The notes beneath the pieces are model-generated. The model was not told where the DNA came from. It worked only from the letters and a program-made list of their open reading frames with translations, and ran no database searches. From Eledone cirrhosa (lineage: Eukaryota), in NCBI GenBank assembly GCA_964016885.1, contig OZ024740.1:210304001-210368000 (forward strand): a stretch of DNA of 64,000 nt, written 5' to 3'. This document shows, piece by piece, positions 1-59,422 of this stretch (its first letter is position 1; each line of letters opens with the position of its first letter). Position numbers and translations under genes: made by a program.

Positions 1-1260
1 CACAAAGTATACAGTTAATATTCAATTCTTTATCAATTTAGAATCTTTTCTCAAAGGCACATATACATACACCTCTTTAAAATATACCCATCTACCTTAC
101 TTTAAAGGGCATTATACACTCTATAATACTCGTTTACTCATTTCCCTCATCCTATCTTCTCGTAAAACAATAACATTTGTTTTTGACATTTTGAATATTC
201 ATCCGCAATCATTATTATTTTTTTTTCCCTCTATCATAAATCTTTTTAATCTCAATTTCATCCTTAATTTATTATTATATATTTTTTTTAATATATACTC
301 ATATATTCTTTAAAATATACCCATCTACCTTACTTTAAAGGGCATTATACACTCTATAATACCCGTTTACTCATCACCCTCATTATATCTCCTCGTAAAA
401 CAATAACATTTGTTTTTGACATTTTGAGTATTCATCCGCAATCATTATTATTTTTTCTCTCTATCATAAATCTTTTTAATCTCAATTTCATCCTTAATTT
501 ATTATTATTTTTTTCTCCCCATCAACGAACTCATTATTAATACATATGAATTCAATATAAAAACTTTAACTTCACATTATTTTTCTCAAATCCTTCTACA
601 CATAAACTTTTTCTCTTTGCTAATTTTAAAATTCCTACATTTCTCCTTTTGACGTTAGAATATTCACCCACAATTATTATTTTTTTCTCTCTATCTCCAT
701 ACATAATTTCCCTTCGTTATTTTTTTCTCTCTATCTCCATACATAATTTCCCTTCGTTAATTTTCAAATTCCTTTAATTTATACATTATCTTCCAACGGT
801 TCCCAACCTCTCTATATTAAAACATTATATCTTTTTCTCAGTTATAAAAACTATCTCTTTCTCTCTATCACCCATCTCTCCCTTTCCACCTTCACTCTCA
901 TCTCCTCCCCTTTTTTTCATCCTTTCCACCCCCACCCCTCCCTAAATATAATATATTTTTTCCTCGCACATATCCTCCCTTCGTTAATTTTCAAAATTTT
1001 TAATTTATACAGTATCTTCCAACGGTTTTCAACCCCTCTATATAAAATATATCTCCTCTCAGTTATAAAAACTATCTCTTTCTCTCTATCACCCATCTCT
1101 CCCTCTCATCTCCTTCCCTTTTCATCCTTTTCTCTCCCCCCCTCTCTAAATAAAATATTTTTCCCAATATCACACATCAATCTAAAACCACTTTTCATAT
1201 GTTGATTTAAAACTGCACTATCAACAAGTGTTTTTTTAGCCTTCATATCATGTTCTCCTG

Positions 1261-1327
1261 TTTTATCTGATGAAAACACAAATATTATTGTTTGATGATG
1301 TTTGTTTTTGAAATGCGCATAATAAAA
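1261..1327 (+). ncRNA. Type I hammerhead ribozyme (HHR)
   Basis: TTTTAT-CTGATGA-stem II-GAAA-TGCGCA-TA-ATAAAA; stem I TTTTAT/ATAAAA, palindromic stem III, about 130 nt before a (TA)n tract. Confidence 0.85.
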
Positions 1328-1450
1328 TATATTGAACTCCTTTAACCATCTTTTGATCTTATATTATGCATACTCCAGTCCCACAAACTGTAGAGTGCTT
1401 CTTATCCGATATCTGCATTGCTTTATTGTACTACAATAAAACTCACCTCC

Positions 1451-1488
<38 letters not shown>

Positions 1489-1536
1489 AGACGTAAAATA
1501 AGAAAATTATAAAATTAACTTACTTACTAAAATATC

Positions 1537-1618
1537 ACTTCCAACTAATTAGTTTCTGGAATGGAGTAGATACATCTTCCGAAGAAGGTGTAGAGAAACA
1601 TCCCGTCATCAGGAAAGT
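1537..1618 (-). ncRNA. Type I HHR, extended stem II
   Basis: ACTTTC-CTGATGA-long hairpin-GAAA-CTAATTAG-TT-GGAAGT on the minus strand. Confidence 0.85.
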
Positions 1619-2117
1619 CAATTCTCATATAAGTTTCCAGGCAAAGCGAGGACTCTGGGAGCTTATTAAAAAATAAATCAGTGAATAGGAAATAGCAGAG
1701 CGTGGACTTAATTCCTAGCCATTGAGAAAATCACTGCCTCTGTGTCTGTGGCAAATTCAAAAAGAATCGAACACGTGACATCGAGGTCAATCGGTGGAAA
1801 GTGGGTTGTTAATAAGACAGCGGCCAGCCTACTACCGTAGCAGCAGCCATGGCCAGTATTGCTCGACAAATATTTTGGAGATAATAATAAAGAATTTATA
1901 TCTAGTAACATATATATACATACAAATGCATATCGATGCTAGCAAATATATAGGTTTTGTCTTAATAACATTGTGGTTCAATGCATGGGGTTGCAGAACA
2001 ATAATATAAGAGACGTAAAATAAGAAAATTATACGCTCTGCTATTTCCTATTCACTGATTTATTTTTTAATAAGCTCCCAGAGTCCTCGCTTTGCCTGGA
2101 AACTTATATTAGAATTG

Positions 2118-2199
2118 ACTTTCCTGATGACGGGATGTTTCTCTACACCTTCTTCGGAAGATGTATCTACTCCATTCCAGAAACTAATTAATTGGAAGT
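2118..2199 (+). ncRNA. Type I HHR (inverted copy of 1537-1618)
   Basis: Same motif with one stem III substitution. Confidence 0.8.
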
Positions 2200-2368
2200 G
2201 ATATTTTAGTAAGTAAGTTAATTTTATAATTTTCTTATTTTACGTCTCTTATATTATTGTTCTGCAACCCCATGCATTGAACCACAATGTTATTAAGACA
2301 AAACCTATATATTTGCTAGCATCGATATGCATTTGTATGTATATATATGTTACTAGATATAAATTCTT

Positions 2369-2450
<82 letters not shown>

Positions 2451-3697: not shown

Positions 3698-3749
3698 TAT
3701 ATATACATATATATATTTATATATATATATATATACACATATATATATT

Positions 3750-4109
<360 letters not shown>

Positions 4110-4315: not shown

Positions 4316-4355
4316 GAGAGATTACAGTAATCGAAGTTCAGTTTAAGTCATTTAT

Positions 4356-4404
4356 TTGCTTACAATTGTTTCCTCCAAACCGAGGTTTGGATTCTTCGGA
4401 GCAA
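4356..4404 (-). ncRNA. HHR, U4C core variant (CCGAAGA)
   Basis: TTGCT-CCGAAGA-ATCCAAACCTCGGTTTGGAG-GAAA-CAATTG-TA-AGCAA. Confidence 0.8.
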
Positions 4405-6120
4405 CTATTTATAACATACTTGACCTCCTTTTCAACCCAAAAGACACATAAAACATATGCGCATATTGATCAACAGTGGGGTGACATTCATCAAATGATA
4501 TAGCATGGCAATTTACATATAAAGGTTACAGGATAAAAATAAAATAAAATAAAAACAAGAGTGAAAATAAGAGTGAAAATAAAGATAAACATGAAGCGTT
4601 GGCAGTCTATGAAGATAAAGCAAGAGGAAAGCTTAGAGTAGTCAGGGTATGAAACAATCTCCCGTGTAGCATGCACGCGTGTCTTATCTATACATGATTA
4701 GAGTGCGTCAGAATGATATTTGCAGGGTCAGGCAGTTGAAGCAGGCAATCGATCTTATTATATAGGCTGAATTATTAAGTCATTTATTCTCATACATCTG
4801 TATGATATACAGTCTCGGATGCGGGGAAACACCAAAATATCAAAAACCATCAACATACTATAAACCTTATTGTATCGTAGGCAAGGTCGTACCACTGTCC
4901 TTGCTCACACCACCACTCACATAATCCATGAGACGCAATATATATATAGAGAACACGCGTCTATCGTGTAATTCGCAGTGGTTCAGCATATAGTCAAGCT
5001 ATAAACCGTATCCAGTCGGTTCTTAATTAATATATCATGCTGTCCAGATTCCGGAAGTGCCTGAATGACTAAGGGGAATTAATGCGTAAGGGGAGGTAAC
5101 TAGCTAGTTATCTTAGTTACATTACTATGCTAAACTACATTAATGGTGATTCAAATACGTGCCTATCATGTGAAGTTATAACTAATATCTAGAGTATGTT
5201 ACCCATTTATAGGTTAGAGAGTTGTCCATTAAGAAGTACAAGGGTGTATATATTAGGATGATTACCATCCATTAATTAAGGGGTGTCATATCTGAACGTT
5301 CTATAAGAGGAGTCAGACTCTCAAGTCACTGCTCCATGCAAATGTAATATAACAGTAGGACCTGGTATGGTCCCACTATTATATATGCCACCCGGTAGGC
5401 TCCGGGTCATTGCTTGCCTGCATCTCCAGTAAATCATCGGTATGGTCCGGAGATCCAATCTCTCATATAAATGCACTAGTCTGGCCATCAAGCAATGGGC
5501 AACCCCCGTCTCAAATATAAATCAATTATGTATCACATCTCCAAGCTAGAGTGGAGTCTATTAATAGGTATTAAAGGAGTCCACATCAAGATGATTACGT
5601 GCATAATTCAATGAACTGATCGCTTACAGTATATAATCACTTAACAATACGATTATCTATCTAATCATCAATCTATCTCTTGGTGGTATTCCATGCACAG
5701 GACTATACTATCGCAACCAGTACCGTGTCCCCAATTTATACTAATCTTATATTTGTGCAATGCAGAATAAGTAGTCCACGGTCGAGATATCAGTATTAGA
5801 GGTACAAGGGGGTATTCCCAGGGTAGGTGGTACTAAAAAGCTGTCAGTATTATCTTTAGAGTATAGAGATGGGTGTGGATGTGAGGTGTAAGGTCTGCTA
5901 CTGATGTTAATTGCTAGGGGTGGTGCCGGTTCCAGTCTGACATTATTATATATAGGGTTTAAAGTTTTGGAACGAGTGTCGGAAGCGGTGTTGGCAATTT
6001 GCGAAGACTTCTGATTTTTTATTAAGGAGATTATGTTTAGAGAAGATGATAGTATGGGTCTCTAGTAGACAGAGGTTACAAAATGTATCAGGTGGTTTGT
6101 ACCAAATATGTTATAAATAG

Positions 6121-6169
6121 TTGCTCCGAAGAATCCAAACCTCGGTTTGGAGGAAACAATTGTAAGCAA
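6121..6169 (+). ncRNA. HHR, U4C core variant (inverted copy)
   Basis: Same motif as 4356-4404, overlapped by AATAAA. Confidence 0.8.
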
Positions 6170-6374
6170 ATAAATGACTTAAACTGAACTTCGATTACTG
6201 TAATCTCTATATAACTGCTCTGTAAAACAACTGATGTTATTACATTGAGCTATTTATCTTACTGGTAATAGGATAGTAATCAATGACTATCTCTCACTAC
6301 TTAGGGTTTGTGTATATATAATATATTACCATCAAAGGTTTTATTGCATACATAACCATAAATAGTACCCTTAA

Positions 6375-6446
<72 letters not shown>

Positions 6447-6450
<4 letters not shown>

Positions 6451-6659
6451 GTAAGGTTGCAAGACAAGATAAATGCCGGCTGAGCACTCAATGCTCGCGC
6501 AGAGCAGAGTATAATTATGATAAGGAACAAGGATTCAGTGTTGCATCATACCATATTTAATAACATATTACATATGTTACTCTATCGATCAGCTCGAGGC
6601 AAGATCTATTATAGATCGAACGTGACTCTGTAATCGAAAGTTTGAACTCATATACCAAA
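6447..6659 (-). repeat. Right arm of inverted repeat with 3750-3960
   Basis: Reverse complement of 3750-3960. Confidence 0.9.
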
Positions 6660-6671
6660 TATATATATGTG

Positions 6672-6729
<58 letters not shown>

Positions 6730-7082: not shown

Positions 7083-7139
<57 letters not shown>

Positions 7140-7140
7140 T

Positions 7141-7791
<651 letters not shown>

Positions 7792-17520: not shown

Positions 17521-17522
<2 letters not shown>

Positions 17523-18285
17523 AAATTAAAATGAATTTAATCTAAATCAAAATTATTGGTGTCATGCCAGAAAGGCATGCACCATATCACCCGTAAAATA
17601 AGCTCTAAGATTCTAATGAATAGGTCCGAGCATTTTATAACAACTAGAAATTGATTAACATATAAATAAACATATGAAACAATCACAGGGGATAATTTTT
17701 ACAAGTGTGTAACCACACATAGCTAGGTAGGTAACTAAATAAAGTTAACTAGAACTTCAAACATTTTACGGGTGATATGGCGCATGCCTTTCTGGCATGA
17801 CACCCATCATTTTGATTTAGATTAAATTCATTTTGATTTATCATAATTTTGGATATAGATATGTAAATACGGCTCCTTAATTGTAGAGCTAACTCTGTTG
17901 AAAGGACTTGACTGCTGTTTCTAGTTGTCGATAACCCTATTCACGCCACTGGGACGAAGCTGGTATGATGTGTGTATTTTTAGTAGATACAGCACGTGTT
18001 ACTGGCCAGTCGCTGATTTGAACTTAATGCGTAAACACAGATCGCTAGACTTCTTCCTTGTTGAGAATCCAAGTACCGGCCTCCGTCGTTTACCAATCGA
18101 TTAATTGGTGAAATATATTTCTTTAATAGAATATATACAGGGAAGATTAATCATATTATAAGGTATCTATTTTTGAAGTTCTAGTTAACTTTATTTAGTT
18201 ACCTACCTAGCTATGTGTGCTTGCACACTTGTAAAAATTATCCCCTGTGATTGTTTATTTATATGTTAATCAATTTCTAGTTGTT
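17521..18285 (+). mobile_element. HHR element with circularly permuted inverted arm (~560-nt unit)
   Basis: 17521-17598 inverts ~17763-17840 and 17636-17760 inverts ~18171-18288. Confidence 0.8.
18053..18145 (+). ncRNA. HHR, U3-A8 core (TTGAGAA)
   Basis: CTTCCTTG-TTGAGAA-TCCAA..TTGGT-GAAA-hairpin stem III-TA-CAGGGAAG; 8-bp stem I. Confidence 0.7.
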
Positions 18286-25904: not shown

Positions 25905-27162
<1,258 letters not shown>

Positions 27163-27204
27163 TATATTACTCTTTTACTCTTTTACCTGCTCCAGCCACC
27201 CAGA

Positions 27205-27333: not shown

Positions 27334-27655
27334 ATGTATACGTACATACATATATGTGTACAGTCGTACAGTAGTATGTATATATATACATACATGCACA
27401 TATATATATATATATATGTACGTATGGGTTTACCGAACATTTATTATAATGTTCGGTTTGGTTGCCGAGCACTGTACGGCGTAATTCGGGCTGTTTGTTT
27501 ACAAACAAACCGAACATTATAATAAATGTTCGGTAAACCCATACGTACATATATATATATATATGTGTGCATGTATGTATATATATACTACTGTACGTCT
27601 GTACACATATATATACTACTGTACGTCTGTACACATATATGCATGTACGTATACA
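27334..27655. repeat. Fold-back inverted repeat between (TA)n tracts
   Basis: GTACGTATGGGTTTACCGAACATTTATTATAATGTTCGGTTTG and its reverse complement. Confidence 0.8.
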
Positions 27656-29897: not shown

Positions 29898-29948
<51 letters not shown>

Positions 29949-29979
29949 AAGAATCAAAGAACTGTTCAAAACATTTTTG

Positions 29980-30026
29980 TGCTTACAACTGTTTCCTCCA
30001 AACCGAGGTTTGGATTCTTCGGAGCA
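29980..30026 (-). ncRNA. HHR, U4C core, in element 29942-30577
   Basis: Same core and stem II as 4356-4404 in a diverged copy; shared CATAACCATAAATAGTA terminus. Confidence 0.8.
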
Positions 30027-30574
30027 ATTTATTAATGAATGGACAGTTATATGACCTCCTTTTCACCCAAGAGACATACAGATACATATGCAAATATTGT
30101 GGGTCAACATTCATTACAGCATTTAGAGTGGCAGTACACACTTAGAGATTACATTCATATTAAAAGGTACAATCAAAAATCAAAAATACAGGTTAAAATA
30201 CAACATGAAAATAAGCGGTTATATAGTGCAAATGTTATATGTGTGGCAAGCACGTGCGTCTTGTTTATATAGTGTGGCAGAGAGTTACGTGTAGTAGAAG
30301 CACTTAGGTAGGTAAACCAGAGTGTTAGGTTGGTTGATTTGGTGGCAAATTCTTTATATGATTGTTATAGTCTGTGTGTGGAGAAATGATATAAGCATTA
30401 AAAATAGTGCAAGCATTAAAAATATTAAAAGTATTGGAAAATGCACAGCGAAGGGATGATATGGACTTCATGTACTTCGACATTTTCATAGTCAGGGGAG
30501 TGTATTTTTCAGATTATATGCCCCTCACATAATCCCCGTTTCTGTATTTACATAACCATAAATAGTATAATTAA

Positions 30575-49450: not shown

Positions 49451-49532
49451 CCCTCTGACGAGAGTTTTTCTTTGCAACGGATGCCGTATGGACTCCGTTT
49501 GTTTTTGAGACTCGAAACCGATTCGGTAAAGG
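49451..49532 (+). ncRNA. Type I HHR, second tandem copy
   Basis: CCCT-CTGACGA-GAGT..ACTC-GAAA-CCGATTCGG-TA-AAGG. Confidence 0.8.
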
Positions 49533-49562
49533 TAAACTTTTTCTTATTTGCTAAACCTTGAT

Positions 49563-55134: not shown

Positions 55135-55660
55135 AATAAAATAAAATAACAGGAGGCTAGACTGGTGTAAATCCTTGAAAGGTTTATTATACTATGATCA
55201 TTTCAATGACCGGGTTCCATATGAATCCGGTGATATCATCAGATATTGGAATACAACAAAGGAATATGTAAAAAAACCATAGGTCCGAAAAATCAGAGAC
55301 GGCGACTGGCCGAGGTGAAGGCAGCTAGTTGGTCAGTCGTCCTCTTTGTCTCTGTCTATGATTTTTCGGACCCATGGTTTTTTTACATATTCCTTTGTTA
55401 TATTCCAATACCTGATGATATCACCGGATTCATATGGAACCCGGTCATTGAAATGATCATAGTATAATAAACCTTTCAAGGATTTACACCAGTCCAGCCT
55501 CCTGTTATTTTTATTCATAATTAACTCCGTATTCGCACCACCAACTACTCAAACGAAGACGGGAGAACTGCACTACGTTGAGTACTCTCCACAATATTAC
55601 ACCAAGATTGACCATACGGAATGACCAATTCTATCAAGTGGTGAACCAACAAACCTAAAG
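55135..55660 (+). mobile_element. HHR element with inverted arm; HHRs at 55189-55246 (-) and 55408-55465 (+)
   Basis: ATAC-CTGATGA-..ACCGG/CCGGT..-GAAA-TGATCA-TA-GTAT-AATAAA; ~55140-55300 inverts ~55347-55513. Confidence 0.88.
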
Positions 55661-55756
55661 AAATATATATATATATATTCATTCAAAATATTAACAAAAA
55701 TAGAACTTCATTGTGATCACAGAAATCTGTGTGAACAAGTTGTATACTATTGTATT

Positions 55757-58779: not shown

Positions 58780-59422
58780 TGCCAATCTCCAACTCACAAT
58801 CTCCAACCAGCAAATTGCTCAAGTTACAGAGTTTGTATATCTCAATCACAAACTATCATCAAAGAACAATGGAATGGCTGCAGCGCAATATCGAATCGGG
58901 CTAGGTTGGGCAGCTTTCAACAAGAACAAGGAAGTACTAACATCAAAACGAGTTTCCTATCATTTGAAGGCTAAGATCTTTGATACTTACATCCTACTAG
59001 TTGTATAATATGGTCTTTACTGTGTTAATTGAACGACAAGATCACTTCAGAAGCTCTCTAAATTCCAGAACCACATCATGAGACTTATAACTGACAAGCG
59101 GCTCAGCGACCGTATCTGTATCAGTGAGCTGCTCAACATTACCAGACTTAGACCAATTACATCAATTGTCAAGTCAAGAGTACTCAAAGTATACGGTCAT
59201 ATAAAAAGATCAACTCGTGGTGTGAGTAGGTTATGCCTGGAAGGAAGGTTGGTTGGTAAGAGAAGCAGAGGCCAGCAGGCAAACCGATGGCTCGATAATG
59301 TCAACTTATGGACTGGACTTGATCTTTGCTCTTTGAACTCTGCTGCTGGTGATCGAACTTTGTGGAGAGAGATATCACATGTTAATGCGTAGTCTGCAAC
59401 TGGCAGAGTTTAGCGTCACAGG
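58780..59422 (+). pseudogene. RTE-like LINE RT 3' remnant; 3' end duplicated at ~61545-61675
   Basis: QVTEFVYL..RIGLGWAAF..LKAKIF..YGHIKR..LEGRLVGKRSRG..RWLD..DRTLWR, with stops. Confidence 0.8.

Follow-up and report, generated by a model that had tools for sequence, protein, structure and literature searches.

The closest described systems are the EN+ PLEs (Neptune, Penelope/Poseidon), for which the available portions of the reports describe copies in partial tandem, beside them an inverted copy truncated at its 5' end, and a tail of 30-40 bp on one side (PMC8557442, PMC3846280, PMC8969392). Hammerheads occur within PLE pseudo-LTRs, with opposite-strand pairs 100-700 bp apart, and a circular template has been proposed for these elements (PMC4209133). 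For a PLE protein it has been reported that two internal start sites define the tail, and that both strands are cleaved and extended (PMC11167929). Circles are documented for retrozymes (PMC7229834, PMC7761336), an origin of retrozymes from PLEs has been argued in a preprint (bioRxiv 10.64898/2026.07.22.740005), and PLEs have been recently active in Octopus vulgaris (PMC13282606), in each case according to the accessible part of the publication. How internal start sites are chosen and how tandem or inverted PLE insertions are built are stated to be open questions in the accessible text of two of these reports (PMC8557442, PMC11167929).

The locus described here lies in a window, meaning the whole 64-kb stretch of DNA that was analysed, which is AT-rich, repeat-dense and animal-like with many TA and CA microsatellites. 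The locus consists of two head-to-head partial copies of a non-coding 522-nt unit with a predicted type I hammerhead, and we consider it probable that they were recently inserted into (TA)n by the RT and GIY-YIG nuclease of a Neptune-type PLE acting in trans. Its features are as follows.

1454-1486, no strand: (TA)n microsatellite, left target, into which a neighbouring hammerhead element also runs with its 3' end (TRF, end contexts)
1482-2033, minus strand: left arm, 522-nt unit plus 30-nt repeat, with its 3' "short end" at 1482-1487 (self-BLAST, mapping)
1482-1511, minus strand: segment X, 30 nt, identical at 2004-2033 (minus) and 2225-2254 (plus) (self-BLAST)
1537-1618, minus strand: type I hammerhead motif, copy 1 (descriptor scan)
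1704-1883, minus strand: segment B, 180 nt, non-coding, left arm only (self-BLAST, mapping, translation)
1976-1999, minus strand: copy of the bulged hairpin within the left arm (descriptor scan)
2033, no strand: head-to-head junction, 1-nt overlap (mapping)
2033-2374, plus strand: right arm, 342 nt, with its 3' "long end" (self-BLAST, mapping)
2118-2199, plus strand: hammerhead motif, copy 2, differing from copy 1 at 2191 (mapping)
2209-2319, plus strand: possible retained intron, 111 nt, with a GTAAGT donor 15 nt after the cut and a YAG acceptor (alignment)
2255-2374, plus strand: 120-nt right-arm extension beyond the short-end equivalent (end comparison)
2259-2282, plus strand: bulged hairpin, 5 nt past the short-end position, with 4 bp, a 2-nt 3' bulge, 4 bp and an AC-rich loop
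2372-2454, no strand: (TA)n microsatellite, right target (TRF)

Self-BLAST of the window resolved three repeat blocks at the locus: 1482-1703 against 2254-2033 (inverted, 220/222 identical), 1884-2033 against 2374-2225 (inverted, 150/150 identical), and 1482-1511 against 2004-2033 (direct, 30/30 identical). E-values of 1e-111 and 1e-75 exclude a chance origin of the arm repeats. With the mapping of the arms, these blocks bear out the initial annotation, which had described a permuted unit of about 522 nt followed by strand inversion, a minus-strand arm of one unit plus about 25 nt, and a plus-strand arm reading through the end of the first. The minus arm (2033→1482, 552 nt) consists of the 522-nt unit and an exact 30-nt repeat of the unit start, which comes to 25 nt (1487-1511 = 2009-2033) once 5 nt common to the (TA)n are left out, while the plus arm (2033→2374, 342 nt) runs through unit positions 331→522→150 and passes the equivalent of the minus-arm end, at 2254, by 120 nt. 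When the unit is divided into segments X (1-30), A (31-150), B (151-330) and C (331-522), the order is X-A-B-C-X in the minus arm and C-X-A in the plus arm. The arms differ at only 2 of 342 positions (2110 and 2191; 99.4% identity) and have a single base, 2033, in common at the junction, where neither a palindrome nor longer microhomology was seen. The span first noted, 1486..2372, was correct in location, though not in its exact ends, which are blurred by TA microhomology over 5 nt on the left (1482-1486; chance 0.034) and 3 nt on the right (2372-2374; chance 0.107). A MITE reading was rejected on the grounds that the inverted arms are unequal and permuted.

When the hammerhead strand is taken as sense, the 3' ends of both arms face outward into (TA)n, the microsatellite target that flanks the element on both sides (TRF, end contexts). 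The 3' end lies 56-61 nt past the predicted hammerhead cut in the left arm and ~180 nt past it in the right arm, and the 5' end of the left arm is 31 nt downstream of the expected upstream cut position. No duplicated non-TA flank was seen at the locus, the flanks being (TA)n, where a duplication is unreadable. Further copies of the 522-nt unit were absent from the 64 kb, the other self-BLAST matches being TA-repeat noise, and exact 20- and 24-nt patterns of the unit gave 0 loci in prokaryotic genome contigs. The TA run entered by the studied left arm is also where another hammerhead-plus-hairpin element (1259-1454, plus strand) stops, which shows that one microsatellite was targeted repeatedly.

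Copy 1 of the hammerhead motif has a helix I of 6 bp, a CUGAUGA core, a helix II whose 6 bp are prolonged by a UUCG hairpin, GAAAC, and a self-complementary helix III region of 12 nt, with the predicted GUU cut after 1543; the core positions C3UGANGA9, G12AAA15.1 and NUH17 and all three helices are present. Shuffles of the unit matched the descriptor in 0 of 5000 cases in its strict form and in 7 of 5000 in its loose form. The long helix II, the extra base after A9 and the palindromic helix III are traits of PLE-type motifs as given in the available part of one report (PMC4209133). However, Rfam at the gathering threshold returned 0 matches over the window, and so no hammerhead, and at E≤10 returned only miRNA models, on TA repeats, within 1400-2450. 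In its minimum-energy fold the isolated motif hides its core (z 0.21). Helix II starts on a C·A mismatch, and the change at 2191 in copy 2 breaks the C15.2-G16.2 pair of helix III. Given the Rfam miss, the non-active fold, the mismatch and the copy 2 mutation, we treat ribozyme activity as a prediction only. A 10.1-11.1 G-C pair exists, displaced on both sides by a single additional base (the C·A), as it is in neighbouring families. The self-complementary helix III allows a dimer duplex (-13 kcal/mol), and cleavage, if the motif is active, would probably occur as a dimer. Neither the hammerhead motifs nor the link to PLEs had been part of the initial annotation.

The unit itself has no coding potential and no long ORF in six-frame translation, and tblastn of three PLE proteins against the doubled unit detected no similarity (best E ~0.5); short antisense look-alike peptides (E≥0.5) were rejected as chance. 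Its GC content is 36%, and LTRs bearing a PBS or PPT were not seen by eye. It is strongly self-paired (z -4.5 linear; after rotation to the cut site, -3.6 as a linear and -4.6 as a circular molecule), a result to be read against the one of 14 control windows that was equally low (z -4.4) and the z of -2.9 for the antisense strand. The GT and AG positions of the possible intron are similar in an alignment of three families, the studied unit and two relatives, which hints that 2209-2319 may be a retained 111-nt intron. Among eight neighbouring segments aligned with the hammerhead region of the unit, two gave significant alignments (48.9 kb, p ~0.007; 7.2 kb, p ~0.013). The alignment with 4317-4900, the one EN-bearing neighbour aligned, was not significant, and the studied locus shares only the layout of hairpin and hammerhead with this neighbour and with 34999-37269.

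Neither arm order fits a non-redundant linear consensus of 522 nt, and the template must therefore have been longer than one unit or circular. This much of the initial claim of a tandem or circular template stands, while circularity is not established: both arms are collinear with a smallest linear template X-A-B-C-X-A of 672 nt (1.29 units) with a 150-nt terminal direct repeat, the arrangement of a PLE pseudo-LTR, so that a circle is possible but not required. The left arm ends 31 nt before reaching the upstream cut, which is in keeping with a linear RNA cleaved by its hammerhead. A less favoured though possible alternative is that the same PLE-driven insertion used a 522-nt circular RNA, formed by hammerhead cleavage and ligation as a retrozyme circle, with the RT going round more than once. 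A circle would account for the surplus of the left arm over one unit and for its exact 30-nt repeat, yet the 672-nt linear template suffices for this, and the 31-nt shortfall is allowed by a cleaved linear 5' end. The strong self-pairing of the unit, linear or circular, points to a circle as well, but is tempered by the equally well folded control window and the antisense value. In favour of a circle, a 483-nt relative of the unit, at 48895-49562, extends across both hammerheads; against one, no multi-unit array was seen. From the literature, the demonstration of circles for animal retrozymes (PMC7229834) and their proposal for PLEs (PMC4209133) have to be set against the finding that uncleaved RNA is the main PLE substrate in vitro (PMC11167929), as far as the available text of these reports goes. 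We suggest as the most likely template a linear RNA of more than one unit, read through from a partial tandem in which the downstream hammerhead stayed uncleaved.

The layout of the locus recurs in the window. A relaxed scan of the two strands returned 18 hammerhead-like matches, which fall on 17 cores, and we compared eight head-to-head insertions between TA runs, including the studied locus (1482-2374) and leaving aside short self-inverted segments such as 27418-27548, 30847-30886 and 45714-45751. In all eight, one arm continues past the end of the other, by the following lengths.

Studied locus: longer arm overshoots by 120 nt
4316-6377: overshoot of 169 nt
7134-7664: overshoot of 106 nt
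17521-18284: overshoot of 119 nt
33696-34810: overshoot of 86 nt
34999-37269: overshoot of 88 nt
47641-48189: overshoot of 51 nt
55135-55662: overshoot of 143 nt

This one-sided overshoot makes read-through of the junction the general tail signature of PLE insertions here, and the presence of one short and one long end in every case indicates that the 3' ends are likely preferred start sites; the 5' ends of the arms look like random truncations. The notion that the template had been entered at different points thus holds in the sense of two likely preferred 3' start sites, and not in that of random entry. Since only two arms of the studied family were seen, its fixed ends are deduced from relatives: in two related families the short end is at the matching position, at most ~10 nt upstream of a common TGTTCTG motif, and one family has repeated ends at ~+49 to +55 and ~+137 nt from the cut. 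Coding remnants of a GIY-YIG C-terminus occur in two of the insertions, in the same sense as the respective hammerhead (tblastn E 1e-10 in 34999-37269; a weak 0.01-0.09 in 4316-6377). The insertion at 17521-18284 is also permuted and head-to-head, with a period of ~560 nt, a 119-nt tail and the hairpin, while an intact hammerhead core was not found in it. At 48895-49562 (plus strand), a non-coding 483-nt unit forms a direct partial tandem that includes two hammerhead cores; it is distantly related to the studied unit (pairwise p 0.001) and is the window's best retrozyme-like candidate.

A bulged hairpin accompanies the short ends; its loop at the studied locus is ACCCCA. In a general, sequence-agnostic form (4 bp, a 2-nt 3'-side bulge and at least 3 further bp), it was detected in 9 of 10 insertions with its start 2-13 nt past the short end, compared with a background of 5.1% and with 0-3 of 10 for five control bulge geometries; these figures should be interpreted with caution, as the descriptor and its 1-13 nt window were set after inspecting the elements, and the statistics ignore the kinship of some of them (e33/e35; the studied locus, e7 and e48). 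The tenth insertion (25.8 kb) has a degenerate version, and the generic match for 17521-18284 is in a shifted register. A strict NYTC descriptor gave 17 matches in the window as opposed to 4.0 in shuffles. Of the 17, seven are preceded by an exact hammerhead core no more than 220 nt upstream (background 7%), and five look like chance. Hairpins 3897/6510 and 32268, which were outside the training of the descriptor, lie 39-72 nt before a TA run, the latter 60 nt past a hammerhead variant. Over 13 hairpins, 89 of 91 cells are paired (shuffle mean 68, maximum 79), with pairs counted by coordinates and pairing partly built into the descriptor, and six of the seven positions show several pair types (G-C/A-U, U-A/C-G and other swaps). 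The hairpin differs from the minimum-energy fold in ~4 of the 13 instances. On these sequence comparisons, the bulged hairpin is a likely candidate for a signal at which reverse transcription starts; no description of it at the short end was found in the openly accessible PLE and retrozyme literature.

We propose that the PLE nuclease would nick both strands of the microsatellite, with each 3'-OH priming cDNA synthesis on the element RNA. The first cDNA would start at the short site, just 5' of the bulged hairpin and ~58 nt past the ribozyme cut, and, on a template of more than one unit, would run for 552 nt into the second segment X. The second would start at the long site, 120 nt further 3', and stop after 342 nt, and the two truncated cDNA ends would then be joined almost bluntly at 2033.

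Three other explanations were weighed against this PLE-driven insertion from two start sites. It is very unlikely that a fold-back or template switch at the DNA level copied part of a pre-existing left arm in inverted form, with a jump between the two X repeats. The entire right arm could be spelled from left-arm sequence in this way (C-X, then A), and the 99.4% identity of the arms would be expected, but there is neither a palindrome nor microhomology at 2033, and the short and long ends of all eight insertions, as well as the hairpin at the short end, are left unexplained. We give still less credence to the idea that a LINE, and not a PLE, made the insertion through LINE-1-type twin priming on a single RNA molecule. 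The outward 3' ends with TA microhomology would suit it, as would the RTE-like LINE coding sequence in the window. Twin priming yields abutting, non-overlapping segments, whereas the arms here overlap by 150 nt in template coordinates or leave a gap of 300 nt; moreover, poly(A) is absent, and the layout is linked to PLEs by its hammerheads and by the remnants of GIY-YIG domains. An artefact of assembly or of long-read fold-back is scarcely credible, for although the inverted structure sits between microsatellites, its arms start at different unit positions, differ at two sites and have unequal ends, and the same layout is found in seven other insertions.

A Neptune-type PLE has left coding sequence in the window: 46117-47424 (minus strand) is a 5'-truncated ORF with an RT C-terminus, a CxC linker and a GIY-YIG domain, and its two database relatives are full-length RT-endonuclease ORFs. 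The linker carries an asparagine-rich (AAT)n insert, resembling those described in rotifer PLEs, and a TA run directly follows the stop codon. Pfam identified nothing in the translations of three PLE remnants and recognized only the Tc1/mariner ORF; this DDE transposase ORF (26167-26922) lies between 27-nt inverted repeats at 26006-27163. Several further observations concern the neighbourhood. A hammerhead variant with a CCGAAGA core (U4 to C) and intact helices is present in three copies, in 4316-6377 and 29942-30214, one of them downstream of a GIY-YIG C-terminal remnant. The hammerhead at 32174-32360 (plus strand) looks canonical apart from C3 to U, and is followed by the hairpin (+60) and then by a TA run (+152). 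An inverted duplicate of a hairpin-bearing 224-nt segment (3736-3959 and 6448-6675; 99%, identical ends) flanks the 4316-6377 insertion tail-to-tail. The equal-ended segment 27418-27548, a short inverted-repeat element flanked by TA runs, showed no hammerhead and is possibly a MITE. Translations inspected by eye show C-terminal coding fragments of RTE-like LINEs at 37856-38574 (minus strand) and 59033-59392 (plus strand). The window starts with pyrimidine-rich tandem repeats of strong C skew (74-508 and 741-1150, periods ~233 and 220 nt). A SINE-like motif recurs 11 times in the window, and we take it to resemble octopus SINEs.

The value of the locus is one of mechanism: it offers a candidate cis-element of 20-60 nt with natural compensatory changes, and a rule by which each head-to-head insertion pairs a short end with a long one, and the candidate signal would also show what a retrozyme requires for mobilisation by a PLE. 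We advance, as a tentative idea that may well not hold, an undescribed RNA start signal common to Neptune-type PLEs and their non-coding parasites here, in which an RYTC stem that covaries and bears a 2-nt bulge on its 3' side sets the first cDNA base a few nt upstream, and a dimeric RT-endonuclease primes the two strands asymmetrically, at the short site and 50-170 nt downstream, on circles or oligomers generated by the hammerhead. If this were true, one mechanism would account for head-to-head inversions, the one-sided tail and longer-than-unit PLE copies, and a minimal cis-signal for retrozyme mobilisation would be defined.

In comparison with known systems, permutation and inversion are ordinary for PLEs and no new class is needed. 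Like the EN+ PLEs, in so far as the available portions of the reports describe them, the locus has a pseudo-LTR-like partial tandem at the 5' end, an abutting inverted 5'-truncated copy, an extension confined to one end, a type I hammerhead motif that lies in the terminal repeat near the 3' end, an AT-rich target, here the (TA)n microsatellite, and a possible retained intron. Unlike an autonomous EN+ PLE, it lacks an ORF with a telomerase-like RT and GIY-YIG domain. Its tail of 120 nt (51-169 nt across the eight insertions), as opposed to the 30-40 nt published, counts against the explanation we favour; on the sequence comparisons made here, such long tails, together with the covarying bulged hairpin at the short end, appear to go beyond the published descriptions. 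The Poseidon_Ac (PAc) in vitro system (PMC11167929), according to the part of the study available, likewise has two internal start sites downstream of a hammerhead that define the tail, cutting and extension of both DNA strands, which we infer here, and an AC-rich stem-loop at the start site, to which the present hairpin can be likened from the published description. In PAc, however, the start lies inside a stem-loop within the ORF, with no target homology and a tail of 30-40 nt, whereas the short start here is just 5' of the hairpin, with TA microhomology of 3-5 nt, in a non-coding element.

The animal non-LTR retrozymes (PMC7229834; bioRxiv 10.64898/2026.07.22.740005), as characterised in the accessible text, provide the other close comparison. 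The unit is larger, at 522 nt, than the characterised circles of 170-400 nt, while lying within the 51-972 bp of the preprint, and the locus has no two consecutive head-to-tail hammerhead units, its two hammerheads being on opposite strands with at most 1.06 units per arm. It resembles the retrozymes in being non-coding, in a GC content below 50%, in its type I hammerhead, in a longer-than-unit copy, in the strong self-pairing of the monomer (z -3.6 to -4.6, with one of 14 controls as low), and in its co-occurrence with PLEs, the proposed source of such units. The locus behaves like a non-autonomous PLE or retrozyme.
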